64,000 nucleotides of DNA from Candidatus Oleihabitans oleiphilus (GTDB lineage: Bacteria; Atribacterota; Phoenicimicrobiia; Phoenicimicrobiales; Stramentimicrobiaceae): the NCBI GenBank assembly GCA_018054125.1, contig JAGPKD010000001.1:27147-91146 (forward strand), written 5' to 3'. A program made the translations under genes and the position numbers. Each line of letters opens with the position of its first letter. The stretch's first letter is position 1. Below, piece after piece: positions 13,164 to 53,973 of the stretch. The notes under the pieces were generated by a model. That model worked only from the letters and a program-made list of their open reading frames with translations, ran no database searches and was not told the DNA's origin.

Positions 13164-15905
<2,742 letters not shown>

Positions 15906-18940: not shown

Positions 18941-18942
18941 CT

Positions 18943-20238
18943 ATGGATTTAAAGGATCGGCTGGAGAAGATTGAGAGTTTAAAAAGAAAGGTTCAGCAAG
19001 TTAATAATAATCACCAAAAGAGCAGCTTTTCTTATTGGAAAGCCAGAACGCCTCTTTCCATTTCTGAGGTTATCACAGGGAATCTTATGGCTACCCCCTA
19101 TGGTTCCTGTTTTTTTACCGAAAAGTGTATTCCGTTAGATAGTTATTTTGGTGAACTTTCTCTCTTAGATATGGTGAATTATTTTCCTTCAGGATTGGAT
19201 TTATTGATACCAAAATTTAAAGGGGAAAATAGTAATATTCAATTAGAAGATCTACTATTTTTTGATACCGAGACTACTGGATTGGCAGGAGGTTCTGGAA
19301 CTTACATTTTTTTATTAGGGCTGGGTTATTTTAAGGGAGACTCCTTTTGGGTTAGACAATATTTTATGTCAGACTACCATGAAGAAGAGGCCTTATTATG
19401 GGCAGTAAACCAGTTTTTTGCTCAGGGTTTTAAATTACTGGTTTCTTATAATGGGAAAAGTTATGATTATCCCTTACTGGAGACCCGTTATATTATGATG
19501 CGTCTCCCTTTACAATTAAACACTACTTATCATCTTGATTTATTATTCCCCACCAGAAGATTATGGAAGAGAAGATTACAAGACTGTTCTTTACCTCATA
19601 TAGAAAAGAAGATACTCAATATTTTTAGAGAGGAAGACCTCCCGGGCTACCTTATTCCTCAGGTCTATTTCCGTTATCTACAGGATAAGGATGCTCGTCC
19701 TCTCAAAACAGTCTTTGCCCATAATTTACAGGATATTGTTTCTCTGGCTATTTTGACTGCCCGGATTGGACAGATTTTTCAGGACCAGGACCCATTACGC
19801 AGGGTAAGATCGGGGTTGGATCTCTTTAGTATGGGCAAGATTTATGAGGGAAACAAAGATTTTCAATATAGCAGTAGATGTTATGAAGAGGCTTTAAATG
19901 GTAACTTATCAGAGGAAGAATCACTGGAAGCATTAAAATTATGTTCCTTTGCCTATAAAAAACAGGGGGAATGGAAGAAGGCCGAGCAAGCCTGGTATGA
20001 CCTTATTTCCTTGAGCCGGGGGAATAGGGAATTTATTTTTTATCCCTATGAAGAATTAGCTAAATATTATGAGCATATCCTGAAAGACTATTGGCAGGCA
20101 GAGAGGATAGTAGAGGAGGCTCTGTCCAGATTGGAACAGGAAAGTAGGAAAGAGGAAAATATGAAACAATGGCAACAGGCTCTATATCACCGTCTGGAAA
20201 GAATAAAAAGAAAACAGAAAACAAGAAGGAGTATTTGA
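18943..20238 (+). CDS. DEDDh 3'-5' exonuclease with C-terminal TPR-like region (MrfB/YprB-like)
   Basis: Exo I motif (FFDTETTGL), Exo II-like (YNGKSYDYPLL) and H..D (AHNLQD) are present. It starts 3 bp after the helicase stop. Confidence 0.7.
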   Translation: MDLKDRLEKIESLKRKVQQVNNNHQKSSFSYWKARTPLSISEVITGNLMATPYGSCFFTEKCIPLDSYFGELSLLDMVNYFPSGLDLLIPKFKGENSNIQLEDLLFFDTETTGLAGGSGTYIFLLGLGYFKGDSFWVRQYFMSDYHEEEALLWAVNQFFAQGFKLLVSYNGKSYDYPLLETRYIMMRLPLQLNTTYHLDLLFPTRRLWKRRLQDCSLPHIEKKILNIFREEDLPGYLIPQVYFRYLQDKDARPLKTVFAHNLQDIVSLAILTARIGQIFQDQDPLRRVRSGLDLFSMGKIYEGNKDFQYSSRCYEEALNGNLSEEESLEALKLCSFAYKKQGEWKKAEQAWYDLISLSRGNREFIFYPYEELAKYYEHILKDYWQAERIVEEALSRLEQESRKEENMKQWQQALYHRLERIKRKQKTRRSI

Positions 20239-38755: not shown

Positions 38756-38792
38756 AGAGAAGCTTCTTAGCTATTAGTGCTAAGAAGCTTCT
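38756..38792. other. 15-bp-stem perfect hairpin between convergent genes (terminator-like, no clear U-tract)
   Basis: gagaagcttcttagc-tattagt-gctaagaagcttctc. Confidence 0.5.
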
Positions 38793-39055
38793 CTCAGGTG
38801 GGCCTGGGCTTTGATGCTGGTTAGTTCTCTCTGGATTTCAGTGCAGTATAGAGAATAATAATCACGATTTTGTTGGTTTAGCTCAGTTAAAGTTTTCTGC
38901 ACCATTGCTACCTGTTTAAAAATTTGCTCATAACCTTCTTTCTGAGTAGAAACCAGCTGTTGCATAAATCGGTCAATACGGAAAATCAAAAAGATAGACA
39001 GGGCAATGGGAAAGCCTTGATTGGCAATAATTTCTGATAAATTTGCTAAATCCAT
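38780..39055 (-). CDS. BhlA/UviB-like small holin-like protein (tracked ORF 38780..39178 is N-terminally over-extended; an aaaggaggagaa RBS precedes the Met at 39055)
   Basis: ~90 aa with an N-terminal TM segment (FPIALSIFLIFRI) followed by a coiled-coil tail, as in BhlA/UviB. Confidence 0.45.
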   Translation of the reverse strand: MDLANLSEIIANQGFPIALSIFLIFRIDRFMQQLVSTQKEGYEQIFKQVAMVQKTLTELNQQNRDYYSLYCTEIQRELTSIKAQAHLREAS

Positions 39056-39089
39056 ATCTTTTCTCCTCCTTTCAGTCCGGTATTTATTA

Positions 39090-39473
39090 TTAGCCCTGCC
39101 AGCGGGCAGGTCCGGCAGGGCGGATATCCAGATGCAAAAAATTGCGTTGGGGATAAAACCCAATTCCCGAAAAATCAATCTCCTCAGCTACTTTTAATAA
39201 ATCAACCAGGTTAATTCCTGGCACATAAATATCTGCGGCCATACCCAGGAGATGATAACTATTTTTTACTCCACCTACTTTTAGATTGTATTCTGGACAG
39301 CGGTAACCAGAGGTAATGATTACTGGCTTTTGAATTTTATACCTCAATCCTTTCACTTTTTGTAAAAGAAGCGAATGTAACATTACTTGTTTACAACAGG
39401 GACATTGAAATTCATCAAGATAGAAATGTTCGGCAATTCTAATATGGTTAATGGTATTTTGAATCAACATCAA
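39090..39473 (-). CDS. peptidase M15 (VanY/L-Ala-D-Glu peptidase-like) cell-wall hydrolase, endolysin-like
   Basis: SGYRCPEYN...SYHLLGMAADIYVPG zinc-binding signature of the M15 family. Confidence 0.7.
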   Translation of the reverse strand: MMLIQNTINHIRIAEHFYLDEFQCPCCKQVMLHSLLLQKVKGLRYKIQKPVIITSGYRCPEYNLKVGGVKNSYHLLGMAADIYVPGINLVDLLKVAEEIDFSGIGFYPQRNFLHLDIRPAGPARWQG

Positions 39474-39853
39474 TTATTTTCCTCTATGTTTTGTCTGATA
39501 GCTGCTTCTTTTTGGTAAAAGGCTTTCTTTTTTAACAGGGAATCATAATATTCCCGATTGACCCGATTAATATTGGCTTTCATCATAGCCTGTAATTCTC
39601 TTGTTTCCTGTGCCTTTAAGGTTATCTTCTTATCTTGCAGAATCTCCAGCAGTTTTTTCCAGGCCTCTTCCCATTTCTTATCACCTTGACCGATACCAAA
39701 TTCCTCCTCTGCCCAGAGCATTGCTGTTATTAAGGCCTCTTTGATAGTTTCTGCCCGATCATTGCCTAATTTATTTTTCAGGAAGCCAAATCCAATAGAG
39801 ACTGCAAAAAGTAGTAAACCGTCCAGTAGAAATTTACTGAATAAGCTCTGCAT
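39470..39853 (-). CDS. phage holin, LL-H-like (single N-terminal TM)
   Basis: N-terminal TM segment (LLDGLLLFAVSIGFGF) followed by a charged amphipathic region typical of the Holin_LLH family. It overlaps the M15 gene by 4 bp. Confidence 0.5.
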   Translation of the reverse strand: MQSLFSKFLLDGLLLFAVSIGFGFLKNKLGNDRAETIKEALITAMLWAEEEFGIGQGDKKWEEAWKKLLEILQDKKITLKAQETRELQAMMKANINRVNREYYDSLLKKKAFYQKEAAIRQNIEENN

Positions 39854-40016
39854 TGTCCTTTCTCCTTTCTTTTGTTTAAATGTTTTCCATATTTATTTTT
39901 CATTTTTTAATCTTCTGATTTTTCAGAAAAGACCGGCCGGAACCCCGAAAGGGGGCCCGGCGGTAAAGACATCACATCACCTTTCTGTTTTTTAGAACAG
40001 TGTGCAATTGAAATTA

Positions 40017-40292
40017 TTATGAGACATCCATAACATCAGTAGATTGGTAATCCAGGATGCGGGCATTGACCTTTTCCACCAGGTTATTTCCTTTGTTATG
40101 GAAAATGTTTTTGGCAATAATGGTATCCATCACTGCCTCAATGGCGGCATCCTGAGCCTCAAGGTCAGCATAATCTCCCTCAGCCAGACTTTTAGGATTA
40201 TCCAGGGTTAGATTAACTAAATTACCTTCACTATCTCTGAATTGCATATAGAGTCTCTTATAGCTGGTAACCTCACCAATTGTGGTAGCCAT
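40017..40292 (-). CDS. small protein, DUF2922-like
   Basis: Pattern RLYMQFRDSEGNLVNLTLDNP...IEAVMDTIIAKNIF resembles the DUF2922 family, which is usually paired with DUF1659 in Firmicutes. An aaaggagaaga RBS is present. Confidence 0.4.
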   Translation of the reverse strand: MATTIGEVTSYKRLYMQFRDSEGNLVNLTLDNPKSLAEGDYADLEAQDAAIEAVMDTIIAKNIFHNKGNNLVEKVNARILDYQSTDVMDVS

Positions 40293-40346
40293 AGTCTTCT
40301 CCTTTCTTTATTTTTTAATTTCCAGATTTGATTTTATCAATTTTTA

Positions 40347-40571
40347 CTAAGATGTGAGCTGGTATGATTGATTCAGTCTTATTTCATCCAGGCTGTATTT
40401 CTGTAAGCTAACCAGTTGATTGGCCACATCAAAGATATCCTGCTCGGCTGCCGTATCTTTCACCCGGTTAAAGCTCTTGGTCCGGATAATAGGCTTACTT
40501 GATTCAGGATCAGTACCGGTGACCAATCTTAGTTGTAAAACCGAATCATAAGGGATTACTACTACTGGCAT
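40347..40571 (-). CDS. small protein, DUF1659-like (tracked ORF extends to 40616; an aaggaggtg RBS precedes the Met at 40571)
   Basis: Pattern LQLRLVTGTD...KSFNRVKDTAAEQDIFDVANQLVSLQKY resembles DUF1659. Confidence 0.4.
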   Translation of the reverse strand: MPVVVIPYDSVLQLRLVTGTDPESSKPIIRTKSFNRVKDTAAEQDIFDVANQLVSLQKYSLDEIRLNQSYQLTS

Positions 40572-40872
40572 TTTTGCACCTCCTTTCTTTTTTGATTGCG
40601 TGCTTGCGGGTAACAATTGCTAGAATAGGTTTATAGTTTATAGTTTTTGGTTTTTAGTTTATCGTTTATTTTTTTAGTTATTAATATTAATAAATAGTTA
40701 TCAGTAAAAATGATGGAAGGTGTTTATAAGCGTTAAGCCTAAATACCTACTTTCATTTTTTAAACTGAGAAGTAAAAACAGAAAACTGAGAACTGTTCTT
40801 CTACTTGTAAAAGCAAAAAAGGGGATAAAATACAAAAAGGGAATTAAAAATAACTGTTATACTCATCATCAT

Positions 40873-40928
40873 ATTCCTCTCCCTTAGAAGGGAGAGGTAA
40901 GGTGAGGGTGATAAATATTACCTTAAGG
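40873..40928. repeat. family C unit immediately 3' of the large helicase gene
   Basis: cctctcccttagaagggagaggtaaggtgagggtgataaatattaccttaag. Confidence 0.8.
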
Positions 40929-43900
40929 GTAATTCAGGGGTTTCAGGGGAATTTCCCCTGACCGTTGGAATTTCAACTGAAACCGTTTCCGCCAGCATTA
41001 ATCCTCTGCCAGGAATTACTCTTAACAACTTTTCTTTAAGATAATTATCAGATAAATCAGCTAAATCAGATAAACCCGAATTATGGTTATTTTTATCCTG
41101 CTCCTGCATAATTTTCTGCATACTTTTTCTCAGTTTTCCGAGATGATACCAGAGACGATGGTAGGTGGCATCCTCATCATCTGGCCAGAGAGTATCGATA
41201 AGCTGCTCATAGGGTATTACCTTCCCCTTATTTTGAGCCAGAAAAAGAATCAATTGATAGCCTATTTTGTTTACTGCTATCTCTTTACCCAGAAAGAGAA
41301 TCTGATCAGGTCGATGAGGGTTAATGGTTATTACTGCCTTTATTTCGTTTTTTATTTCACCTTTTGTTTCACCTTTTATTTCGCTTTTTAAAGGCAGTGG
41401 GAAATTTTTGTTCAGCTGTGCTTCAGGGTTTTGATTATGTTTATAATCTGAAAGGAGATTTGATTTGTTTAATTTATTTCTATGTATCTTATTATTTTTA
41501 TTACTATTTATATTATTTTTATTACTCTTGCTATAGGAGCTTGAATTAAGCCACTCCTTTATTTTCTTAATCAATAAATCAGGCAGTAATGGTTGCAGCT
41601 GTTTTTCCGATAATTCCCTGAGGCATTGTTCATCCTGGTATCCTTCCTGCACCAGTCTCTGGAGGTAGCCTCGACTCAAGCCAGGGATATGCAATTTTGC
41701 CAGTGGGAGGCCGGCCGGTTCAACACCAGCAATTAATCTGGCGGAAAGTTGTTGAATTTTTTCTAAATCCCCAGCTCTATCTTCTCTCCAGCCGACCCCA
41801 ATAGCAAGAGCGGCTAAGGCATCGGCCAGCCAGGAAAATCCCTCCCCCATTTTCTGAATAGCTCCTCCCAAAAGGCCATAATCTTGCTCTATTTCTTTTA
41901 ATTCCCTGCCAGTAATCCAGTCATACATGAGGAGGGTATTTTTTAGAGCTAGATACTTTTTTAGTTCATTTTTGGATGGTGCCTCTTTTAGTTCAGAGGG
42001 ATTGCTATTGATATTATTGATATTTAAATTATTCTGAAAAATTAGTTTATCCTCTTCCTGCTGTTCAAAAATTAGGTTCAACATACGCAGGCGTAAAAAT
42101 TCTTTCCATTTATGGGTGAGGGACTTTTTATTTTTAATCACTCTGCTTTCCCTTCCTGGATAATCAGTAAAAAATTCTTCCCCATCACTGCTGGTAGCAA
42201 TTAAGAAGAGAATTTCCAGTTCACTGCTATTTTCTTTCTGACTCTCCTTAATCCATTTTAAAAAATGGAGATAGGTTGGAAAAGAGATGCCTTTGGAGGT
42301 TACCAATCGTCCCATTTCGGTAAGCTGGCAGTATTTTCCCTCCTGGATAGTGATAAGTTGTTCACTTTCCAGCTGTTGGAGATAAGCCAGAAGCTCTGCT
42401 TCGCTATAGGTCTGGCTGAATTGATGATGCCAGAAAGTTTGTTTTTTGGTGTCGTTACCTGTTTTTAACAGCTGACAGATATCCTGGAAAGAATCACAGT
42501 CCAGGGCAATACGGTATAACAGAAAGGTCAATATATCTTTTTGGACGATAATGGGTCTTTCTTTCCAGATTTCCAGAAGAGCAGGACCAGGACTAACGGT
42601 GGTAACATTAGTAAGAGCAGCAATATCCTTTTTGGTATATGGTGTTGAAGTTTGGTCCTCATTAAGGGTATTTTCCGAAATTGGAACATCTTTCACATAA
42701 TGCCTTATTGGCTTTTCTTTTTGTTTTTCTTGCTGTTGCTGAAGAGCAGGATAAAAATAGCAAGGCAACCATGTTTCCCCATCTTTAGAGTAGTCCGGGA
42801 AATAGAGCTTCTGATAAGCAGTTAGCTCAATAAGGGAAGGAGCCAGAAAGATAATTCTACCAAAGGAACAAGCAGGATTAAGTCGACCAGCTCGTCCACC
42901 CATATTTTCTACTTCAGAAAAAGTGAGCATACTCTGGTAATAATTTGTCATATATCTATCGTATCTATTATGTTTATCGCTTTTTTGCCCGGAGACAATT
43001 TTTTGTCCGGTTAGAATAACATTGTTTACCGGTAAATTAACTCCCATAGCCAGAGTACCGGTGGCACATACGATTTTCAGTTCACCAATGCGCACTGCTT
43101 CTTCAATAATATGTCGTTCTGGCCAGGAAAGATCGGCACAGTGATAAGCAATTCCCTTCTGGAGAAGATTTATGAGCTCCTCCTTGGAGGTGGAATCCTC
43201 TATTATTAGCATCTGCTCCATAGCTCTTTGGGCGGGATTCAGGGTAAACTGGCTTGCCAGCCAGCTACTCCATAAACGCACTTCTTTCTTGGTGGAAAAG
43301 AAGATCAGGTTTGATTCCTGTTGTTCAATGAGAAATTGCAAGGTAGCTTTAAGATAGCTGGCTAAATTACATTCCTGAACATCTTCTGGAGGAAAGAAAA
43401 ATTCTTTGCCTGTTATTTTGCTATTATGTTCTACATAATGATAAATTCCTTCCCGAACAATTCCCTTGCGTAGCTCTACTGGTCGATAGGAAGACCAGAG
43501 TAGTTTAGCATCAAGCCAGGTAGCCAGTGCTAAGATATGTTCAGTAAGTGCGGAAAGGGCAATAATCCGAATAGCAGGATAGTTAGCTTTAAGATAATTA
43601 AAATTGCTTTCTAAACGTGGCCCGCGTTGGGAGTCATTGATTAACTGAATCTCATCAGCCACAATTAAGGAAACATTATGAAGGCATTGCGGATACTGGA
43701 GAAGAAAATAGTAGAATTTTTCGTAGACCAGAATGGCAATATGAAAATTGCCCTGCCTGATATCCTGGTCATCATGACGGTGATCACGAGAAGAAAGTTT
43801 GATTTTTAAACCGAGTGAGCGGTAAAGATGAACAAAATGCTGATATTTTTCTTCTGCTAAAATTCGCAAGGGGACTAAGTATATTACTTTGTTATGGAAA

Positions 43901-44211
43901 GATATTTCCTGCAGAGCAGCCATTTCACCTACCAAAGTCTTACCTGAAGAGCTGGGAGAGACAACTAAAAGATTTTCTGGCTTTTCTCGGGATAGGGGAG
44001 TTGCTTCATATAGATTAGCTTCATATAGATTAGAAAAAAAATTAGGATGAGAAGAGCGGAGAAGATTAAACTGGCGTACTGCCTTTTCTTGCACTGGCAG
44101 AAGGAAGTCAGAGTAATGCTCCTTCCAGACCTTAATAATATAATGGGGAATACCAAAGTATTCCAGTTGCTCCATCTTCATATTTTCCAGCATTGTTACT
44201 AAATACCTCAA
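40918..44211 (-). CDS. Ski2/Hel308-like SF2 DNA helicase (1097 aa) with an N/K-rich low-complexity linker and a C-terminal OmpR/PhoB-type winged-helix DNA-binding domain
   Basis: Hel308-like N-terminus (LLPVQEKAV...LLVVSPSSSGKTL), DEIQ box and motif VI (MGGRAGR). The C-terminal trans_reg_C-like segment is GYQLILFLAQNKGKVIPYEQLIDTLWPDDEDATYHRLWYHLGKLRKSM. Confidence 0.75.
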   Translation of the reverse strand: MRYLVTMLENMKMEQLEYFGIPHYIIKVWKEHYSDFLLPVQEKAVRQFNLLRSSHPNFFSNLYEANLYEATPLSREKPENLLVVSPSSSGKTLVGEMAALQEISFHNKVIYLVPLRILAEEKYQHFVHLYRSLGLKIKLSSRDHRHDDQDIRQGNFHIAILVYEKFYYFLLQYPQCLHNVSLIVADEIQLINDSQRGPRLESNFNYLKANYPAIRIIALSALTEHILALATWLDAKLLWSSYRPVELRKGIVREGIYHYVEHNSKITGKEFFFPPEDVQECNLASYLKATLQFLIEQQESNLIFFSTKKEVRLWSSWLASQFTLNPAQRAMEQMLIIEDSTSKEELINLLQKGIAYHCADLSWPERHIIEEAVRIGELKIVCATGTLAMGVNLPVNNVILTGQKIVSGQKSDKHNRYDRYMTNYYQSMLTFSEVENMGGRAGRLNPACSFGRIIFLAPSLIELTAYQKLYFPDYSKDGETWLPCYFYPALQQQQEKQKEKPIRHYVKDVPISENTLNEDQTSTPYTKKDIAALTNVTTVSPGPALLEIWKERPIIVQKDILTFLLYRIALDCDSFQDICQLLKTGNDTKKQTFWHHQFSQTYSEAELLAYLQQLESEQLITIQEGKYCQLTEMGRLVTSKGISFPTYLHFLKWIKESQKENSSELEILFLIATSSDGEEFFTDYPGRESRVIKNKKSLTHKWKEFLRLRMLNLIFEQQEEDKLIFQNNLNINNINSNPSELKEAPSKNELKKYLALKNTLLMYDWITGRELKEIEQDYGLLGGAIQKMGEGFSWLADALAALAIGVGWREDRAGDLEKIQQLSARLIAGVEPAGLPLAKLHIPGLSRGYLQRLVQEGYQDEQCLRELSEKQLQPLLPDLLIKKIKEWLNSSSYSKSNKNNINSNKNNKIHRNKLNKSNLLSDYKHNQNPEAQLNKNFPLPLKSEIKGETKGEIKNEIKAVITINPHRPDQILFLGKEIAVNKIGYQLILFLAQNKGKVIPYEQLIDTLWPDDEDATYHRLWYHLGKLRKSMQKIMQEQDKNNHNSGLSDLADLSDNYLKEKLLRVIPGRGLMLAETVSVEIPTVRGNSPETPELPLR
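40933..40962 (+). repeat. family B hairpin overlapping the 3' end of the large helicase ORF
   Basis: ttcaggggtttcaggggaatttcccctga. Confidence 0.7.
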
Positions 44212-44763: not shown

Positions 44764-44857
44764 GCTCCTCTTTGAGATATTGATCTTCTTTTTATTGTTA
44801 TTATTAGGTGGTAAAAAAGTAACTACCCCTACTGTAAAAAAGTAGAACAGGGGACGG

Positions 44858-45017
44858 CAGACTGTGTGAAAACTAATTCTGAAAATTACTTGCCTCCACT
44901 TACACCAATTATTAATTTCATAATTGGGAATAGGTATATAAAAATAGGGTAAAATATAACATTATCCTCCACTTCAACATTATATTTTGCCAAAAAGGCG
45001 ACTTTTCACACAGCCTG
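44858..45017. mobile_element. MITE-like 160-bp insertion with ~16-bp terminal inverted repeats inside a family F hairpin repeat
   Basis: TIRs cagactgtgtgaaaa / ttttcacacagcctg, flanked by duplicated gacgg. The intact F unit elsewhere reads gggacggttctctg without the insert. Confidence 0.5.
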
Positions 45018-45130
45018 ACGGTTCTCTGTTTCATTAAAATAGAATACCTGAGGCAGAGAACCGTCAGAGGTAGAGAAAAGAGATAGGGCAAAGAAAAGGG
45101 AAGAGGCTACTTTTCTTATTGACAGGATTT

Positions 45131-45290
45131 ATGCGGGTATAAGTGGATGAGATTGCCACGCCCTGCTTTCAGCAGGGCTCACAATGACCACCCCCTCTTT
45201 TGTCACTGCGAGGAGCGAAGCGACGAAGCAGTCTCCTTCAATTACACCAGCCGCATTAATTTAATATTCATTTCGCGCGGAGGAAAAAAG
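45131..45290 (-). repeat. inverted, rearranged family A left-arm fragment
   Basis: gtcactgcgaggagcgaagcgacgaagcagtctcc is the reverse complement of the A left arm. It is shared with 48486..48612. Confidence 0.5.
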
Positions 45291-45439
45291 GGGAGAGAAG
45301 AATAATCTTACGGAATTACCCACATTAAAAAGGTATAAATCCCCTGCCAGGCTAAAATAAATATCGTAGACCCTGCTTAAGAGAGCAAGGGACAACAAAG
45401 TCCATTTTGCAAATATTCTAAACCTAAAGTCTTATGTCG

Positions 45440-45886
45440 TTAGCGGGAGGATTTGTGCAAATCTTTGGTAAGTTCCTGAGCCTTTTTAAAAAAATCTCTA
45501 GCCGCTTTTAAAGCGAAACTAGCTCCTTCTTCCGACCATCGGTCATAATAATCGGCGTCCTCTCTTAGTCTTTTACTTTTTCCCAGAGCTTCTATTAAGC
45601 TGCCTGGGAGCAACCTGGTCTCTACATAAAGAGCCCGTATAGCCACAATAAGACAATGGTGGCTGTGCTCTCGGTAGTTCTTGGCAAACAAAAGGGCTCT
45701 GGCGGAATGGAACATAGAGTAATAGGCCTGGATAGTGGCCCATTTGTAATCTTTATCCTCAAAAGTTTTTTCCGCCCTTTCCAGGTCCCGCTGAGCTGTC
45801 CCCAGGGTTTTGGACAAGAGGGCTTTCCCCCGCGGGAATTCCCTTATTTTATTTTTCTTTAAACATTGCTCAAATTCTGGATTCAT
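45440..45886 (-). CDS. HEPN-domain protein (toxin of a HEPN/MNT module)
   Basis: R-x4-H motif (YREHSHH) in a ~148-aa helical protein. It overlaps the upstream nucleotidyltransferase gene. Confidence 0.6.
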   Translation of the reverse strand: MNPEFEQCLKKNKIREFPRGKALLSKTLGTAQRDLERAEKTFEDKDYKWATIQAYYSMFHSARALLFAKNYREHSHHCLIVAIRALYVETRLLPGSLIEALGKSKRLREDADYYDRWSEEGASFALKAARDFFKKAQELTKDLHKSSR

Positions 45887-46427
45887 CTTTAGACTCCCAT
45901 AGGGTTATGCCGTGTTCTATCTCTTCAAAAAATATTGATTCTTCCTTTTCCATCTGGATAAACTGGGTCGAGTTGCGAATAATTGGTTGAAGTTTTTTTC
46001 TGAGGTCGCTTTTCTCTATCTTCTCTTCAATGGCCTTTGGACTATCGGCTAGGATAAAAAGGTCTATATCACTACTGTCTATATCTTCCCCCCGGGCACA
46101 ACTGCCAAACAGGACTATTTTCTTAGAGAGTGGTTTCAATTTATTTACCAGGGGCTGTAAGAGTACAGTAGTCTTGAGGACCTTCAATTGCTTAATAACG
46201 GGATTGTGATAATCAACCGAATAAAGATAGATCTTGGCCTTCTTTTCCCGCAGGACGAGCTTTTCTTTAGCAAGTTTACGAAGAGAGAGATTAACTCCCG
46301 CTCGGCTAATTCTAGTGGCTTTTTCGATTTCCTTAGCCAGAAATTGCTTACCCGGGCTTTGGATAAGAAAGTTTAAGACCTTCTGGGCATTAGTTGATAT
46401 AAGGCTATTGTTCATATAAGGCTCCAT
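45870..46427 (-). CDS. minimal nucleotidyltransferase (MNT) with an N-terminal wHTH, antitoxin-like partner of HEPN
   Basis: GSCARGEDIDSSDIDLFI nucleotidyltransferase signature with an N-terminal winged-helix. Confidence 0.7.
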   Translation of the reverse strand: MEPYMNNSLISTNAQKVLNFLIQSPGKQFLAKEIEKATRISRAGVNLSLRKLAKEKLVLREKKAKIYLYSVDYHNPVIKQLKVLKTTVLLQPLVNKLKPLSKKIVLFGSCARGEDIDSSDIDLFILADSPKAIEEKIEKSDLRKKLQPIIRNSTQFIQMEKEESIFFEEIEHGITLWESKDESRI

Positions 46428-46519
46428 TATATTCTCTAAAAAATTAGATGTACATCTAAAATAATATACGATAATATTATACGATTATCTAATAAATGTC
46501 AAAGAGGCGAATCCTTCTT

Positions 46520-46596
46520 TAGAACAGTATAGAACAGGGGATGATTCTCTGTTTCATAAAATAAAATATCTGAAGTAGGGAACTGTCAGAAGTAGA
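46520..46596. repeat. family F hairpin (gacggttctctg-loop-cagagaaccgtc type), copy in duplicated segment 1
   Basis: aacaggggatgattctctgtttcataaaataaaatatctgaagtagggaactgtcagaagtagagaaaag. Confidence 0.7.
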
Positions 46597-46632
46597 GAAA
46601 AGATGGTGGGGCTCACCATGACTAACCTTACT

Positions 46633-46694
46633 CCCCCCTCACCCTAACCCTCTCCCTCGAAGGGAGAGGGGAGGGAGAGGGTGATAAATTATTT
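46633..46694. repeat. family C unit within duplicated segment copy 1
   Basis: cccctcaccctaaccctctccctcgaagggagaggggagggagagggtgataaattatt. Confidence 0.8.
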
Positions 46695-46762
46695 TCTCAT
46701 GATCTCTAGGGCACTGTATCCAAATTCTACAAAGAGCAAAACAGGAAGGAAGACGGATTAAT

Positions 46763-46972
46763 CTAATCTTGTTTCCTTTGCTCTTTTATCTTTTTTACGA
46801 TACTTTCTACCTCTTCTCCTTGCAGAATAAATTCTCTTTCTTTAGTATAGTCTCCATATCCCAGTTCATATTGCTCGAAGAAACGGATCATACCTACCGG
46901 TCCTAATTCTTTGGTTATAGCTGCTATGCCCAGTTTTCTTATAGCTGTGGGGGTTAATTTTTTAGTATTCAT
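46763..46972 (-). CDS. hypothetical 69-aa protein, copy 1 of an exactly duplicated gene
   Basis: ORF identical at protein level to 49694..49903. Family not recognised. Confidence 0.4.
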   Translation of the reverse strand: MNTKKLTPTAIRKLGIAAITKELGPVGMIRFFEQYELGYGDYTKEREFILQGEEVESIVKKIKEQRKQD

Positions 46973-47199
46973 TCGCTATCACCTCCCATACCCATTCCAT
47001 AGGAGAATTTACTTTTACCTTCAGCATACCTCTAAATAAATTTTATACTTCTACTCTTTCCATCACAATACCTGTCACGTTTATATTTCAAAAAATTGAC
47101 TTATAATATATCTTAGTCTATAATATAAACAACATACCTGCCACGCCTCTCAACGATGCGCACCCTGGCGGGTTTTTCTTTTTAATAAGAGTAGGTTAT

Positions 47200-48078
47200 A
47201 TGAAATATTCCAAGCCACCGACAACATTCCAGGAACAAATCGATATTCTAATAAAACGTGGTTTAAATGTTGAAGATCCTGAAAAGGCTTTATTAAATAT
47301 AAGTATAATAAACTATTATAGATTAAGTTCTTATTTCCCTCCCTTTCAACTCAATGATCATCAGTTTAAAGAGAATACTTCAATTGATAGCATTTTTGAA
47401 TTATATGATTTTGATAAAAAATTAAGAGCTCTTATCTTTAGAGCCCTGGAAAATGTTGAGATTACTTTACGTACCAAAATAGCCTATTATTTCTCTCATA
47501 CCTATAGTCCATCTGCTTACTGTGATCCTTGTAATTTCTCTCCAGGTTTTAATCATGCAGATTGGCTTGCTAAACTAGAAGAAAGTATAAATAGAACTCA
47601 TGAGGATTATGTAAAAGAATTTTTTAAGGAATATGATGAAGAAAAAGTTCTTCCTATTTGGATAGTTATTGAGATAATATCATTTGGCCAGCTTTCCGTT
47701 ATGCTTAGAGGCTTGAAAAGATCTGACCGAAAACGTATTGCAGAAGATTGTTTTGGAATTGATGAAGCAAGACTTTATTCCTGGGTGCATACCTTAGTAT
47801 ATATTAGAAATTTATGTGCTCATTACAGCCGTATATGGAATAGAACATTAGCCATAAAGCCTATGATTACAAAAAGATTGCCTGAATGGAAAGATATTTC
47901 AAATCATAAAATATTCTGTGTTTTTCTGATATTTAAAAAGCTTATGATTATACCAGAACAGTGGGAAGCCTGGAGAAATGATTTAATTAGCCTTTTAGAA
48001 GAATATAAAAATATTAATACAAAAATGATGGGCTTCCCGGATGATTGGCAAGAAAGACTTAATAGCCATAAAATATAG
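47200..48078 (+). CDS. Abi_2 (AbiD/AbiF-like) abortive-infection protein
   Basis: N-terminus FQEQIDILIKRGLNVEDPEKALLNISIINYYRLSSYFPPF matches the Abi_2 family signature. Confidence 0.75.
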   Translation: MKYSKPPTTFQEQIDILIKRGLNVEDPEKALLNISIINYYRLSSYFPPFQLNDHQFKENTSIDSIFELYDFDKKLRALIFRALENVEITLRTKIAYYFSHTYSPSAYCDPCNFSPGFNHADWLAKLEESINRTHEDYVKEFFKEYDEEKVLPIWIVIEIISFGQLSVMLRGLKRSDRKRIAEDCFGIDEARLYSWVHTLVYIRNLCAHYSRIWNRTLAIKPMITKRLPEWKDISNHKIFCVFLIFKKLMIIPEQWEAWRNDLISLLEEYKNINTKMMGFPDDWQERLNSHKI

Positions 48079-48087
48079 ATATTTTTT

Positions 48088-48180
48088 ATTTGACAGGTCA
48101 ACTTCGCCACTTTTTTTGAAATTCCTTTGGTAGTACGGCTTTACGCTACAAAAAAACATTTCACTATATCATCTTTTTTT
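48088..48180. repeat. left copy of a ~90-bp inverted-repeat pair (putative IS terminal repeat)
   Basis: About 90% identical to the reverse complement of 53398..53490. Confidence 0.7.
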
Positions 48181-48485
48181 CTATTCCTTCTAGGAAATTA
48201 TCGGTGGTAAACTCTTCATTGTCTAAGGCCTTTAAAAGAAGCCTTACTTCTTCCGGAATTTCGGTCAGTTTTAACCCTTTCCCGCTAATATTGGTTATCT
48301 CTAATTTCACTGCCCTTATTCTACTGGCCTTTTGATAGAATTCCTGAAGGTAGAATATAGATAGAACATAGAACAGGGTAAAACAGGGGAGGGAGAGAAG
48401 ATAAATTATCTCTTCATCCTAGGTAATAAAGAGGGCAGGCTACTTTTAGCTATCTCTGGATTTGATAACTTAATATATTTTTTAG

Positions 48486-48612
48486 TAACGACTAAATACT
48501 AACGACTAACAACTATATGGTCACTGCGAGAAGCGAAGCGACGAAGCAGTCTCCTACGATTACACCCATCGCCTTAATATTCATTTTGCGCTGGGAAAGA
48601 GAGGGGATAGTT
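48486..48612 (-). repeat. inverted family A fragment, second copy
   Basis: actaaatactaacgactaacaact...gtcactgcgagaagcgaagcgacgaagcagtctcc. Confidence 0.5.
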
Positions 48613-48713
48613 ATCGTCTAACGGTTGGCGGATAGGCAAAACCCAAGCGTAGCGAGGGGTTGGGGTAAAAGCCGAAGGCTGTAGCCCCATATCTGCTGTT
48701 ATACGCTGTGCCC

Positions 48714-48947
48714 CTATTCTCTCCTCCTACTTGCATTGAGTACGGTGATTCCTATGATTTCTCCTTTCTCGTATCTGATTATGAGATCATCATCCGTGAG
48801 CTCGGAATCATCTGCATGGCTTGGCTTCTTGAAATTGAGGTATAAAACATCGGCTTCTTTATCGTAAGAGGTCCAAATCCTTGAATACGGCACTTCCAAT
48901 AATTCAGGCACGAGATCTAATACCTTTTTTACCTCTATGGTTCCCAT
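48714..48947 (-). CDS. DUF2283-like small protein (putative antitoxin)
   Basis: 77 aa with the VLYLNF...DDLIIRYEKGEIIGITVL pattern. It overlaps the upstream DUF4258-like gene. Confidence 0.5.
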   Translation of the reverse strand: MGTIEVKKVLDLVPELLEVPYSRIWTSYDKEADVLYLNFKKPSHADDSELTDDDLIIRYEKGEIIGITVLNASRRRE

Positions 48948-49240
48948 ATCTTTCGCCTCCTTTCCAGTTTTTTCCTCCGCTTCGTTAAGAATGCGGTAAT
49001 TACAAATCCATCCTCTTTACCCAATTCTCTATAGATCACTACCATATATTTATCTTTTTCTATTTCCCTCACTGCTATGCACTCCCCAGCTTTGCCCGCA
49101 TAAATTGCCTCTGGCTCCTCCACCGCTTCGAGAACATCGAAATAATATCCTGCCATCTCCGAATGCTCTTCTGTAATAGGTAACCATCTCTCTTCGGTCA
49201 ATCTGATGGGAACATTGTTTTTGGACCTGATCACATCCAT
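48935..49240 (-). CDS. DUF4258-like small protein (putative toxin)
   Basis: 101 aa with the YFDVLEAVEEPEAIYAGKAGECIAVREI pattern, paired with DUF2283. Confidence 0.5.
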   Translation of the reverse strand: MDVIRSKNNVPIRLTEERWLPITEEHSEMAGYYFDVLEAVEEPEAIYAGKAGECIAVREIEKDKYMVVIYRELGKEDGFVITAFLTKRRKKLERRRKIWEP

Positions 49241-49437
49241 ATTCTATTTTTTCCCCTTTGTAAGTGCTAAAGTTAACAGACCTGGCAGATAACCTTAAAA
49301 TAATCGAACTACTTCGTTGACGTACAACTCAGGGTGAAGTTTTAAAATTAATTATTATTATTTCTCGTGGTGTATCTTTATAGATTCTCATGTTTATTAT
49401 AAACTAATTTTATTAATTCTACAAAATAGTTTTATAC

Positions 49438-49527
49438 ATAGAACATAGAACAGTAGAACAGGGGACGGTTCTCTGTTTCATTAAAGTAGAATACCTGAAG
49501 CAGAGAACTGTCAGAGGTATAGAAAAG
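49438..49527. repeat. family F hairpin, copy in duplicated segment 2, preceded by tagaacatagaacag tandem units
   Basis: aacaggggacggttctctgtttcattaaagtagaatacctgaagcagagaactgtcagaggtatagaaaag. Confidence 0.7.
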
Positions 49528-49567
49528 ATGGCAGGGCTCACCATGACTAACCTCATTTCCCCCTCAC

Positions 49568-49634
49568 CCTCACCCTAACCCTCTCCCTCGAGGGGAGAGG
49601 GGAGGGAGAGGGTGATAAATTATTTTCTCATAAT
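49568..49634. repeat. family C unit within duplicated segment copy 2
   Basis: ccctcaccctcaccctaaccctctccctcgaggggagaggggagggagagggtgataaattatt. Confidence 0.8.
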
Positions 49635-49693
49635 CTCTAAGGCACTGTCTCCAAAGTCTCCAAAGAGCAAAGCAGGAAGGGAGACGGATTAAT

Positions 49694-49903
49694 CTAATCT
49701 TGTTTCCTTTGCTCTTTTATCTTTTTTACGATACTTTCTACCTCTTCTCCTTGCAGAATAAATTCTCTTTCTTTAGTATAGTCTCCATATCCCAGTTCAT
49801 ACTGCTCAAAGAAACGGATCATACCTACCGGTCCTAATTCTTTGGTTATAGCTGCTATGCCCAGTTTTCTTATAGCTGTTGGGGTTAATTTTTTAGTATT
49901 CAT
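49694..49903 (-). CDS. hypothetical 69-aa protein, copy 2 of the duplicated gene
   Basis: Identical to 46763..46972 and embedded in a ~480-bp duplicated segment. Confidence 0.4.
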   Translation of the reverse strand: MNTKKLTPTAIRKLGIAAITKELGPVGMIRFFEQYELGYGDYTKEREFILQGEEVESIVKKIKEQRKQD

Positions 49904-50050
49904 TCGCTATCACCTCCCATACCCATTTTATAGGAGAATTTACTTTTACCTTCAGTCTTATTTCCTTCTTCTTATGAAGAAGTTTATCATCTGTAGGGTA
50001 GATAGTAGGTAGTGTTATTATTGTTACTGTTATTTGCTGTTATTTTGGTA

Positions 50051-50356
50051 CTAACTGGCTTTGGAATAAATCTTTACTTCTGAATCAAGTTTATTTCCAA
50101 GTTTATCTGATTGTATTTCTAGGTCGTAGTGTGCTTGTAAATTAAGCCAGAATTTAGGCGACATCTGGAAATATCGACCCAATCTTAAGGCGGTATCAGC
50201 ACTAATTGCTCTTTTGCCCTGCACGATTTCATTAATACGGCGGGGTGGCACATTGATATCTTTAGCCAGCCGGTACTGGGAAATATGCATGGTATCCAAA
50301 AACTCTTCTTTTAATATTATCCCGGGATGTAGGGGTTCTATTTTTTTATTAGGCAT
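50051..50356 (-). CDS. higA: HigA-family antitoxin (XRE HTH)
   Basis: HPGIILKEEFL...ISQYRLAKDINVPPRRINEIVQGKRAISADTALRLGRYF is the canonical HigA HTH. Confidence 0.75.
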   Translation of the reverse strand: MPNKKIEPLHPGIILKEEFLDTMHISQYRLAKDINVPPRRINEIVQGKRAISADTALRLGRYFQMSPKFWLNLQAHYDLEIQSDKLGNKLDSEVKIYSKAS

Positions 50357-50369
50357 CTCTAATCACCTC

Positions 50370-50666
50370 CTAATGGTAATCAACAATTTCCACATCATAA
50401 GCGTCGTGAGCCTCCCATCTGAAGCAGATCCTCCACTTTTGGTTTATACGTGTGCTGTATTGTCCTTTTCGTTCCCCTCTCAAAATTTCCAAATGATTTG
50501 ACGGTGGAATCTTTAAAGATTGTAAATCAGGAGCTGCATCAATCATCCACAATTTCTTCATCGCCTTTCTCTGTATATCATCGGGAAATTTGAGAGAATA
50601 TTGGCGATGAAATATCTTCCTAGTTTCCTTACCCTTGAATGATTTAATCATGCTTATTATTAACAT
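50370..50666 (-). CDS. higB: HigB-family toxin (RelE/ParE superfamily)
   Basis: MIKSFKGKETRKIF...LKIPPSNHLEILRGERKGQYSTRINQKWRICFRW is the HigB killer-protein signature. It lies upstream of higA. Confidence 0.7.
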   Translation of the reverse strand: MLIISMIKSFKGKETRKIFHRQYSLKFPDDIQRKAMKKLWMIDAAPDLQSLKIPPSNHLEILRGERKGQYSTRINQKWRICFRWEAHDAYDVEIVDYH

Positions 50667-50725
50667 ATTACGTTAATAATGTCAAGCGTTATTATTTTTG
50701 ATTATAAAAACAGGGGAGAACGGGG

Positions 50726-50793
50726 GATAGAACATGGAAAAAAGGGGGACGGTTCTCTGTTTCATTAAAATAAAATATCTGAAGCAGGGAACC
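50726..50793. repeat. family F hairpin upstream of higBA
   Basis: ggggacggttctctgtttcattaaaataaaatatctgaagcagggaaccgtt. Confidence 0.7.
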
Positions 50794-50794
50794 G

Positions 50795-50858
50795 TTACTC
50801 CCCACTTACCCTAACCCTCTCCCTCGAGGGGAGAGGGGATTAGAATTGGGAGAGGAGG
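50795..50858. repeat. family C unit upstream of higBA
   Basis: cttaccctaaccctctccctcgaggggagaggggattagaattgggagagg. Confidence 0.7.
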
Positions 50859-52819: not shown

Positions 52820-53412
52820 GTGTTAAAGAGTATTAGAGTTTTTCACAATAATTTTTACTTTTTAAAATACACAGGGGAAACAAAAAGGAAGACGGAGCAT
52901 CTTTTCCTCATAAAATTAATCCCTAAGAGAAAAAGAGTAAAGAAGAGAACCATCACCACCTATCAAATAGATTACCAGATAAAAAAGGAGAAATTAGAAA
53001 GTCTGAAACTCTCCGATGGAATCTACTGTATCCTTTCTAATCTTCCTGAAGAAAAGGACTCTTCCCTTTTAGTCTCCTCTTATAGATAAAAGGATTTATG
53101 GAGATCAGGCCTTTTTATCATCAGAAGGAAGAGAGGGTAAAATCTCATATCCTTATCTGTATCTTAGGCTATCTCTTACAGGTAACGGTAGAGTATCTCT
53201 TAAAAAGGAAGGGCTATCAGCTTACCTTTCAGGAATTCTATCAAAAGGCCAGTAGAATAAGGGCAGTAAAATTAGAGATAACCAATATTAGCAGGAAAGG
53301 ATTAAAACTGACTGAAGTTCCGGAAGAGGTACAGCTTCTTTTAAAGGCCTTAGACAGTGAAGAGTTCACCACCGAGAATTTCCTAGAAGGAATAGAAAAA
53401 AAGATGATATAG
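52820..53412 (+). pseudogene. C-terminal remnant of an IS4/IS1634-family DDE transposase, split over two frames
   Basis: RPFYHQKEERVKSHILICILGYLLQ is the conserved C-terminal block of IS4/IS1634 transposases. The remnant has no N-terminal half and contains a frameshift. It abuts the right inverted repeat. Confidence 0.55.
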
Positions 53413-53490
53413 TGAAATGTTTTTTGTAGCGGAAAGGCGTACTACCAAAGGAATTTCAAAAAAAGTGGCGAAGTTTACTTGACAAAAAAT
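53398..53490. repeat. right copy of the ~90-bp inverted-repeat pair (putative IS terminal repeat)
   Basis: Reverse complement matches 48088..48180. It lies immediately after the transposase remnant. Confidence 0.7.
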
Positions 53491-53973
53491 AATTAATTGT
53501 ATACAATATACAATAAATAAGTGATAAATATTATTATTTATTCCTATATAATAAGATATAATAAAAACACATATAGCTTGCTGAAATTGTTAAGTTGGCT
53601 GTGAAAAAGTTCTTATTGTATAAGTTATTTCTGTCTTATTCTCAACGCATACACACAATTTTATAGTTTTGTATCTCTGAGAGAATTAAATTCTTATTCT
53701 TTAAACAAGATAACCAGGTTGACAATACCTATTAGGTATTAAAAAAATAATTCCCATCTATTACATTAATATGTCTAAGGGGAAGGAATATATATGTCTC
53801 TATCAATCTGGACGTCAGACCACCCACCTTAGTAATATTACTTCAAATTAATTAATTTTATCTAAAATTGATTAATATTATTTATGTTACATGAAGTAGA
53901 ATTAATTCCAAATACTTTTAAAATTAAACAAGGTTAGAAACAACGACAATTTAAATAAGGAGGATATTTTATA

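Follow-up and report, generated by a model that had tools for sequence, protein, structure and literature searches.

Among the described systems that come closest to the locus studied here, repetitive extragenic palindromic (REP) sequences occur in Pseudomonas and E. coli as singlets and as doublets known as REPINs (PMC3116915). In the integron field, a cluster of attC sites lacking an integron-integrase (CALIN) is defined as at least two bona fide attC sites (PMC4889954). The locus is a strain-variable toxin-antitoxin (TA) and abortive-infection gene cluster on a Candidatus Atribacteria chromosome, at positions 45440-50666 of a 64-kb stretch of DNA from Candidatus Oleihabitans oleiphilus (contig JAGPKD010000001.1), referred to here as the window. 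The window has about 37% G+C, and its + strand carries the majority of genes and a positive GC skew. A first-pass annotation, made by reading the letters and their open reading frames (ORFs), had called the cluster a TA/abortive-infection island with cassette-like organisation. Searches with Pfam, NCBIfam and PADLOC, which were used to assign the gene families, bear out the island. We propose that it is probably a repeat-rich TA hotspot in which generic recombination is the remodelling agent, and the changes that could be resolved need only homologous and illegitimate recombination, insertion sequence (IS) activity and an intron.

Read in the direction of the TA genes, the order is a rubrerythrin-like gene (rbr), repeats C-F, HigBA, orf69 copy b, C-link-F, a toxin/DUF2283 pair, A-tail-tags and an IS remnant, followed by Abi_2 (reverse), orf69 copy a, C-link-F, MNT/HEPN, A-F interrupted by a miniature inverted-repeat transposable element (MITE), and a helicase gene. 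F is a hairpin with short tag repeats in front, C is a GC-rich palindrome, A is an element of about 170 nt, and the link is a short sequence akin to a portion of A. The helicase gene is on the - strand, and the island, which had been placed downstream of it, lies upstream. The island appears to occupy a hotspot for accessory genes, upstream of the conserved genes for a rubrerythrin-like protein and a ketopantoate reductase (ApbA/PanE family). Its modules are HigBA, a decayed PIN/orf69 pair in two copies, a RelE-like toxin with DUF2283, AbiF with an abiF RNA, and MNT/HEPN.

The locus was recovered from other assemblies by exact-protein look-ups and mapped with a library of window segments; L-numbers denote these comparison sequences. 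Presence or absence of modules in related strains had been proposed as a check in the first-pass annotation, and the outcome was positive: at least five arrangements of the locus were found across related assemblies, and modules turn over at the island. L013 is a 186-kb contig whose flanks are about 99% identical to the window. It shares with L015 a short haplotype of HigBA, orf69, C-F and MNT/HEPN, without a block of 2931 bp. The unit in these two sequences is a variant that lacks the link and has 37 additional bp before MNT; this variant is absent from the window and recurs in L036, L039 and L040. L023 and L026 have an extra antitoxin and PemK module between two units. In L027 the DUF pair is joined to MNT through 275 unrelated bp, and in L035 three other genes, forming a module of their own, come after MNT/HEPN, and then a further F and a CRISPR array. 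A block of A extension, Abi_2, orf69 and C (window 48701-46633) is found at a different locus in L062, L063 and L016, and in L014 the Abi_2-orf69 block lies beside rplL with a full IS.

The site is also occupied in more distant genomes. In L064, from a related species whose ApbA is 90% identical, Fic and three HicAB modules take the place upstream of rbr, and units of F, C and A separate the modules. The F unit at the conserved flank is still present there, and the TA genes are on the strand of F, opposite to their arrangement in the window. More distant relatives have Fic and a DNA methyltransferase at this site, without any F. The region upstream of rbr/apbA thus appears as an accessory hotspot across Atribacteria species (Fic and three HicAB in L064 1-8600; Fic and an N6/N4 DNA methyltransferase in L067 6375-9261).

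The junctions indicate how modules were gained and lost. In a multiple alignment running from orf69 to MNT, L017 and L019 are of the copy-b type through the region downstream of HigA and orf69, and of the copy-a type from the 3' flank of orf69 onward. The crossover therefore falls in the orf69 coding sequence, within a stretch of about 150 identical bases, and outside any hairpin. The same alignment shows L036 and L008 to be mosaics too. The 2.9-kb block that is present in some sequences and absent in others has a 0.5-kb direct duplication on both sides, and from the aligned sequences the orf69 crossover appears to be the expected product of homologous recombination between these direct repeats. 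Three other resolved junctions are microhomology joins: GGGGA inside the unit at 48356, CTATC between the truncated IS and the tags, and CTACT flanking a 70-bp indel. The remainder are a transposition with a 4-bp duplication and the insertion of a group II intron. None of the resolved junctions is at a fixed position in F or C.

The first-pass annotation had raised an integron-like or undescribed cassette-shuffling mechanism. The crossover inside orf69 and the nature of the other junctions (microhomology, IS truncation, transposition with a target site duplication, intron) argue against such a mechanism, as do the dispersed C and A repeats, the E. coli-like C and the reversed orientation of F in the related species. 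Its caveat that attC cores and intI were missing holds. No recombinase gene, transposase gene or Phage_integrase hit was found among the ORFs scanned (window 13-44 kb; the first ~12 kb was not scanned) or in the annotated flanks of L013. The cores of an attC site are R'' (RYYYAAC) and R' (GTTRRRY). With both strands read against this consensus, R''/R' boxes were found in none of the units, and neither C nor the link gave a match. The arms of F read GTTCTCT...AGAGAAC, with GTT first, AAC second and the wrong purine/pyrimidine pattern, and so do not form R''/R' boxes. An integron or CALIN was rejected for lack of an attC pair and of IntI in the scanned ORFs, and because the modules have their own promoter-like sites, lie on mixed strands and recombined inside orf69. 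A prophage or integrative element was rejected as well, since there is no integrase, there are no att-like direct repeats at the island ends and both flanks are conserved. A tRNA scan found no tRNA, and hence no tRNA-linked island boundary.

A rival explanation is that the repeats are passive debris in a place where insertions are tolerated, with no role in rearrangement, and that much of the turnover is collapsed or chimeric metagenome assembly. Contigs do start or stop in F or C (L003, L007, L008, L014, L024), Logan/MEGAHIT assembly can switch from one copy to another wherever more than k bases are identical (about 150 are, between copies a and b in orf69), and C and A are generic dispersed repeats. 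This explanation seems unlikely, given that the unit variant of the short haplotype, absent from the window, is found in sequences from NCBI (L013, L015), JGI (L036) and Logan, which is derived from SRA (L039, L040). The PemK haplotype is present in two independent assemblies, the Abi_2 block sits within a 25-kb contig at a different locus, and the indels are bounded by repeats every time. The main haplotypes rest on sequence variants or independent assemblies, which puts them beyond chimerism as an explanation. L028 was set aside as a chimeric contig, as it runs on into high-GC DNA. In L019 (1-60) an internal piece of HEPN (nt 86-134) runs directly into the left end of C, with F-HigB following, which is either a rearrangement or an assembly chimera.

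The repeats between modules form composite units, all of them read here on the + strand. The same unit had been reported at every junction. The full unit, tags-F-link-C, is complete at 46520-46700 and 49433-49630 only, and both are copies within one duplication of about 505 bp (46520-47024 versus 49446-49955, 93% over 512 columns) that also takes in orf69 and 52 bp upstream of orf69; the three other junctions have partial or decayed versions. Copy a has two tags, a degenerate F (46540-46587), the link (46596-46628) and C (46636-46699). Copy b has three tags, F (49464-49512), the link (49520-49556) and C (49553-49630). The unit at 44835-45300 is tags-[MITE]-F-tail-A, without link or C. Its outer end, the tag TAGAACAG with GGGGACGG, lies at 44835-44854, F at 45017-45065 (79.3 bits, E 1e-18), and a tail containing GGCTACTTTT together with A at 45066-45300 (A itself 45131-45300). 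The decayed unit at 48356-48713 consists of tags fused to the right end of C, the tail, A (48486-48610) and an A extension; it has no F, and its F, link and left half of C were deleted at the GGGGA microhomology. The boundary unit at 50700-50839 has degenerate tags, F (50748-50796) and C (50797-50839) and no link, and its place beside the conserved right flank is retained in the related species (L064). There is no unit between HigA and orf69 copy b, nor between orf69 copy a and Abi_2. Ca. Atribacteria UBA6794 (L003) and a metagenome contig (L007) show the order tags-F-(link)-C-tail-(A) again, there after unrelated genes, and the composite behaves as a mosaic of the bacterial interspersed mosaic element (BIME) type.

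F is built from an inverted pair of a REP-like sequence of about 25 nt, AGAACAGGGGACGGTTCTCTGTTT, with TAGAACAG tag repeats in front. It has a 17-bp stem and a 15-nt loop, with arms GGTTCTCTG...CAGAGAACC. A covariance model found it at 45017, 46540, 49464 and 50748, all on the + strand, with E values of 1e-15 to 1e-18, and with the filters off it found F at no other place in the 64 kb; a match at 38759 was discarded as an ordinary terminator hairpin. The window thus has 4-5 copies of F, all inside the island. As folded DNA, F has an energy of -12.5 kcal/mol (z -4.3). These values, with the z of -5.9 for C, put the repeats far beyond chance, and the first-pass view that structured repeats bound the modules is upheld. 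The REP-like sequence has eight copies in 16 kb of L062, mostly singlets and in both orientations; L035 has it as a symmetric doublet beside the CRISPR array, and L064 as a singlet with a tail. F is thus a short imperfect palindrome that occurs as inverted, hairpin-forming doublets and as singlets, as REPs and REPINs do. Exact scans for the F pattern gave true matches in two metagenome contigs and in a single GTDB species genome, that of Ca. Atribacteria UBA6794; matches in viral contigs were dismissed as chance, the second arm being absent. F had no match in the E. coli, plasmid, phage or IMG/VR collections. Rfam, at gathering and E<=1 thresholds, returned the abiF RNA only and nothing for F, C or A. 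REPs flank a cognate gene for a REP-associated tyrosine transposase (RAYT, Y1 transposase), and no such gene was found among the scanned window ORFs. The symmetric tag-F-tag unit of L035 (1983-2179) abuts its CRISPR array, whose repeat is GTTTCAATCCTTGTTTTAATGGATGTCTCTCTTCAAC.

The pairing of F was compared across 14 distinct copies. With G-T allowed, the stem is 96% paired on the + strand, where the hairpin is more stable than on the - strand. Transitions are wobble-compatible in 8 of 10 cases on the + strand against 2 on the - strand, a difference that is suggestive only and not significant (binomial p about 0.1). Covariation among these copies amounts to one double change in 17 pairs, nothing beyond shuffles, because the copies are too similar. 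Copy 46540 is degenerate and has lost the F fold, and the adjoining MNT/HEPN module is intact.

F is also the place where mobile elements have inserted. A 162-bp MITE (44855-45016) lies between the tag and the left arm of F; its inverted ends are CAGACTGTGTGAAAA, and the four target bases ACGG are duplicated. This site is empty in L036. In L013 it holds a full IS (about 13950-15639) with the same ends, carrying DUF772 and DDE_Tnp_1 (a 486-aa DDE transposase), and in L003 (about 300-460) and L007 it holds the MITE in the opposite orientation. The occurrence of the MITE or IS at the same ACGG in three contexts and in both orientations therefore points to sequence- or structure-specific targeting of the F unit. 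Terminal inverted repeats, a target site duplication and an autonomous IS with the same ends occur together only for 44855-45016, and neither inverted repeats nor target duplications were seen for F, C or A. The other reading offered by the first-pass annotation, that this is simply a MITE hotspot, came closest to the truth; it falls short in that F is confined to the island within the window and that the repeats are involved in the rearrangements.

A group II intron (RVT_1 and maturase, 5' end GTGCG) is inserted in + orientation directly after GGTTCTCTG of F in L013 (11947 to about 13950), L015 (about 2230 onward) and L034 (1594-3606). The insertion point directly follows a small stem-loop to which tag and left arm both contribute. 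In this the intron resembles class C introns, which go into terminators and attC sites. A 273-bp terminal remnant of a DDE_Tnp_1 IS lies at 48080-48352 (-), and the full-length IS is found beside Abi_2 in L014. A 48-aa ORF at 48164-48310 lies inside this remnant and was rejected as a gene. A second DDE_Tnp_1 remnant, in the opposite orientation, is at 52883-53502, about 4.5 kb away; the pair brackets most of the right half of the island, and the ORFs at 52820-53412 are transposase fragments of this IS.

C and A are found well outside the island. C has the core TCACCCT(C/A)ACCCTAACCCTCTCCCTCNAGGGNAGAGGGGA and folds as DNA at -23.3 kcal/mol. Beyond its island copies it is present near 12.5, 16.05, 16.47, 40.87, 44.27 and 44.69 kb, and A is present near 12.7, 28.7, 32.65 and 35.7 kb. 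The A fragments at 45131 and 48486 had been noted as inverted; they are direct repeats of each other, and are inverted only with respect to the A copies at 28.7, 32.6 and 35.7 kb. Near-identical, C-like palindromes are present in 5405 of 5426 complete E. coli genomes, with a median of 12 per genome, and many times on alphaproteobacterial plasmids of Azospirillum, Sinorhizobium and Rhizobium. A palindrome of ~45 nt is in this way common to different phyla. We take the E. coli repeat to be of the BoxC class.

Altogether, the spacers between modules are BIME-like mosaics, built from independent palindromic repeat families (F, C and A) and an IS-derived MITE. The strain differences fall at these repeats or at longer duplications that contain them. 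The resolvable events are homologous recombination between direct repeats, microhomology deletions, transposition of the IS or MITE into F, and insertion of the group II intron into F. Incoming modules flanked by repeats may be captured through homology-anchored exchange, and the stacked C, link and F hairpins may act as terminators or insulators between separately transcribed modules.

Another rival explanation makes the tags-F unit mainly regulatory, either a terminator/insulator or the source of a + strand antisense RNA acting on the adjacent TA promoters, and kept by selection. On the - strand the unit ends in tags and the next promoter-like site follows, after about 20-35 bp at MNT and HigB and about 190 bp at the DUF pair. 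Three successive hairpins stand between modules, the link has a weak terminator-like form, and the hairpin is more stable on the + strand. A mainly regulatory unit is nevertheless improbable when set against the lack of covariation, with shuffles doing equally well, and against copy 46540, which no longer folds as F beside an intact MNT/HEPN. The position of F relative to genes also varies in L003, L007 and L064, and there is no Rfam match.

Several points weigh against remodelling by generic recombination as set out above. F and its REP-like unit are confined to the island in the window and lie again beside TA modules in L064, which is tighter than a passive dispersed repeat predicts, and all four island copies of F are in one orientation. 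The counts of F, C and A come from genome fragments and not from whole genomes. The comparison set consists largely of short metagenomic contigs with their ends in the repeats, and L017, L019 and especially L034 could be assembly chimeras. The possible terminator or insulator role of C, link and F is read purely from hairpin stability and position, and a canonical U-tract is absent from all of the hairpins except a weak one in the link.

The confinement of F, its place next to TA modules in another species and its single orientation are what one would expect if the tagged F (TAGAACAG) were a site recognised by a dedicated recombinase or single-strand transposase (RAYT/IS200-like or integron-like) whose gene lies in another part of the genome and which excises and inserts TA modules as cassettes. 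Chimeric copies of F would fit as well: L030 combines the left arm of one type with a loop and right arm from a second type, and a mixture is seen in L036 too. L034 has a junction HEPN-A-F[intron]-HigB, which is circle-like or tandem-like, as expected of a circle or tandem copy of the island, and the better stem pairing on the + strand fits a single-strand substrate. Such a recognition site is nonetheless quite unlikely. No gene for such an enzyme was found in the ORFs scanned (window 13-44 kb) or in the annotated L013 flanks, the arms of F lack attC boxes, and the sole indel that can be mapped precisely crosses over inside orf69. The modules have promoter-like sites of their own, Abi_2 is on the opposite strand, and in L064 F faces the other way with respect to the TA genes. 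F units are found after unrelated genes as well (L003, L007) and directly beside a CRISPR array (L035), the difference between strands falls short of significance, and L034 runs through a multi-copy intron and may be chimeric. A dedicated F-specific enzyme, HUH/RAYT-like or another site-specific recombinase, that moves promoter-bearing TA/defence modules in Atribacterota is given a very small chance, and it keeps that chance because F is tightly linked to TA modules in two species. If true, it would be an integron-analogous system with a different site and a different enzyme.

The genes of the island were assigned as follows, on the - strand unless stated. HEPN (45440-45886, PF05168) overlaps by 17 nt an MNT/Polbeta nucleotidyltransferase with an N-terminal winged helix-turn-helix domain (45870-46427, PF18765/PF01909), and a promoter-like site lies at 46502-46474. 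The two have the adjacent or overlapping genes of an MNT/HEPN (type VII) TA system, and this membership is at the domain level only, since the NCBIfam MntA score of 35.6 is below the cut-off of 60. HigB (50370-50666, PF05015, E 4e-17) and HigA (50051-50356, TIGR02607, E 2.7e-30) form a type II HigBA pair, with a RelE-fold HigB gene, then a helix-turn-helix (HTH) HigA gene, a 13-nt gap between them and a promoter-like site at 50685-50656. DUF2283 (48714-48947) overlaps a gene for a 101-aa RelE/barnase-like toxin candidate (48935-49240). The gene content first proposed was thus right for HEPN/MNT, Abi_2, DUF2283, HigBA and the two identical 69-aa genes; its DUF4258 label was not reproduced, because the sole match of the 101-aa protein is PBECR2, at 25.8 bits, just below the cut-off. 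Promoter-like sites were found before MNT, HigB, abiF/Abi_2 and the DUF pair.

The Abi_2 protein of the AbiD/AbiF family (47200-48078, +; Abi_2 E 3.8e-53, AbiD E 3.4e-84) is encoded on the strand opposite to the other modules. An abiF RNA motif (RF03085, 47137-47173, +) lies directly upstream, 27 nt 5' of the Abi_2 start, with 50.4 bits against a gathering score of 37, and is preceded by a near-consensus promoter-like site, TTGACT-17-TATAAT (47096-47124, +). The RNA motif in front of Abi_2, which the first-pass annotation had not noted, makes the module a putative RNA-plus-protein (type III-like) system. The same arrangement has been studied for AbiF in C. difficile (PMC12373285), and the likeness extends from the RNA motif preceding Abi_2 to the promoter-like site upstream; the present system differs in that one RNA copy only was detected.

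The two copies of orf69 (copy a 46763-46972, copy b 49694-49903, both -) encode identical, orphan antitoxin-like proteins of 69 aa that had no match in Pfam, NCBIfam or PADLOC. Homologues with 88% and 61% identity, in two separate lineages (L042-L049 and L050-L051), lie directly downstream of, and overlap, a gene of 148-151 aa whose PIN domain scores above the Pfam cut-off in both. In these relatives the orf69 homologue and the PIN toxin thus form an overlapping two-gene unit of the PIN (VapC-like) TA kind. In the window, remnants of PIN adjoin both copies. Beside copy a (46973-47058, -), the first ~32 nt of the gene are fused to its last 52 nt by an internal deletion of about 362 nt, and beside copy b (49904-49996, -) about the last 93 nt of the lost gene remain. 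Because the homologues overlap PIN genes and PIN remnants adjoin both window copies, both appear to be orphaned survivors of a PIN-type module after deletion of the toxin, and their context suggests an antitoxin function.

The L042-L049 sequences carry a longer TA array (e.g. L042 4600-11800) with HicAB, TumE, PIN-orf69, MNT, MazE-PIN and AF2212-PIN, which ends in a 262-aa tyrosine recombinase. Tandem repeats of 11-12 bp (GACTAATCC-type) lie in its intergenic regions and at the 5' ends of genes, and SMODS/SLATT genes resembling a cyclic-oligonucleotide-based antiphage signalling system (CBASS) adjoin it. The F, C and A repeats are absent from these L042-type arrays, which are therefore uninformative about the island described here.

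Several features were noted outside the island. The helicase gene (40918-44211, -) encodes 1097 aa, Hel308/Ski2-like with a C-terminal OmpR-type winged-helix domain. It matches HamB of Hachiman in PADLOC, and a HamA partner was not noticed. C palindromes lie on either side of it (40870, 44272), and it is kept in both the long and the short island haplotypes. At 16652-20238 (+), a DEAD-box helicase with a MrfA zinc-binding domain is followed by an RNase_H_2-family exonuclease-like gene, a MrfAB-like repair pair with C palindromes directly upstream (16060, 16474). At 38780-40580 (-), YvrJ-like, Peptidase_M15 and holin-like genes form a small lysis-type cluster, followed by two small ORFs; L042 has a similar cluster with DUF2922/DUF1659 genes. 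The cluster could be what is left of a prophage, or else a conserved module for the cell wall.

The locus offers an Atribacteria example, from an uncultured and little-studied phylum, of how ordinary palindromic repeats can give a TA/defence locus the behaviour of a cassette array without a dedicated recombinase, and such look-alike arrays must be distinguished from true integrons and CALINs in metagenome mining. It also yields a REP-like family, F, as a preferred target of an IS/MITE and a group II intron, a likely PIN-associated antitoxin role for an unannotated 69-aa family, an Atribacteria instance of AbiF plus RNA, and a BoxC-like palindrome almost unchanged between E. coli and Atribacteria.

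Compared with the REP/REPIN and BIME mosaics of E. coli and Pseudomonas (PMC3116915, PMC3337134), F is likewise a short imperfect palindrome found extragenically as singlets and inverted hairpin doublets. Like the parts of a BIME, it combines with further motifs in an order that recurs, and it serves as an IS target and as a substrate for duplications and deletions. REPs and REPINs number tens to hundreds of extragenic copies per genome. F differs in that few copies were seen and that these cluster in accessory regions and do not extend across all extragenic space, in the tandem TAGAACAG tags on one side, and in its host lineage, as Atribacterota lies outside the lineages with described REPINs. 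The core of C is almost the same as a repeat found between E. coli genes, such as TCACCCTCACCCTCACCCTAACCCTCTCCCTCAAGGGAGAGGGGA in the hrpB-mrcB spacer (L069 300-346). BoxC itself is about 50-56 bp long with 22-32 copies, according to a paper that does not include the consensus sequence (PMC2267715).

The island resembles sedentary chromosomal integrons and TA-rich CALIN arrays (PMC4889954, PMC13108822) in its small TA/defence modules separated by similar structured palindromic repeats and in its strain-variable module content. In contrast to them it has neither attC R''/R' cores nor, in the scanned ORFs, IntI; its modules have their own promoter-like sites and mixed gene orientation, its spacers are mosaics of unrelated repeat families, and its crossovers lie outside the hairpin. 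Integron cassettes are mostly without promoters and co-oriented, each an ORF with its attC and with boundaries at a fixed point in that site. The group II intron in the repeat is a further likeness. The concept of minimal mobile elements, with homology-anchored exchange at hotspots, comes from Neisseria. The island has in common with them alternative gene sets at one site between conserved flanks, and homologous exchange without a dedicated recombinase. The difference is that here the island's internal repeats provide homology beside the conserved flanking genes, and individual modules inside the island therefore turn over.

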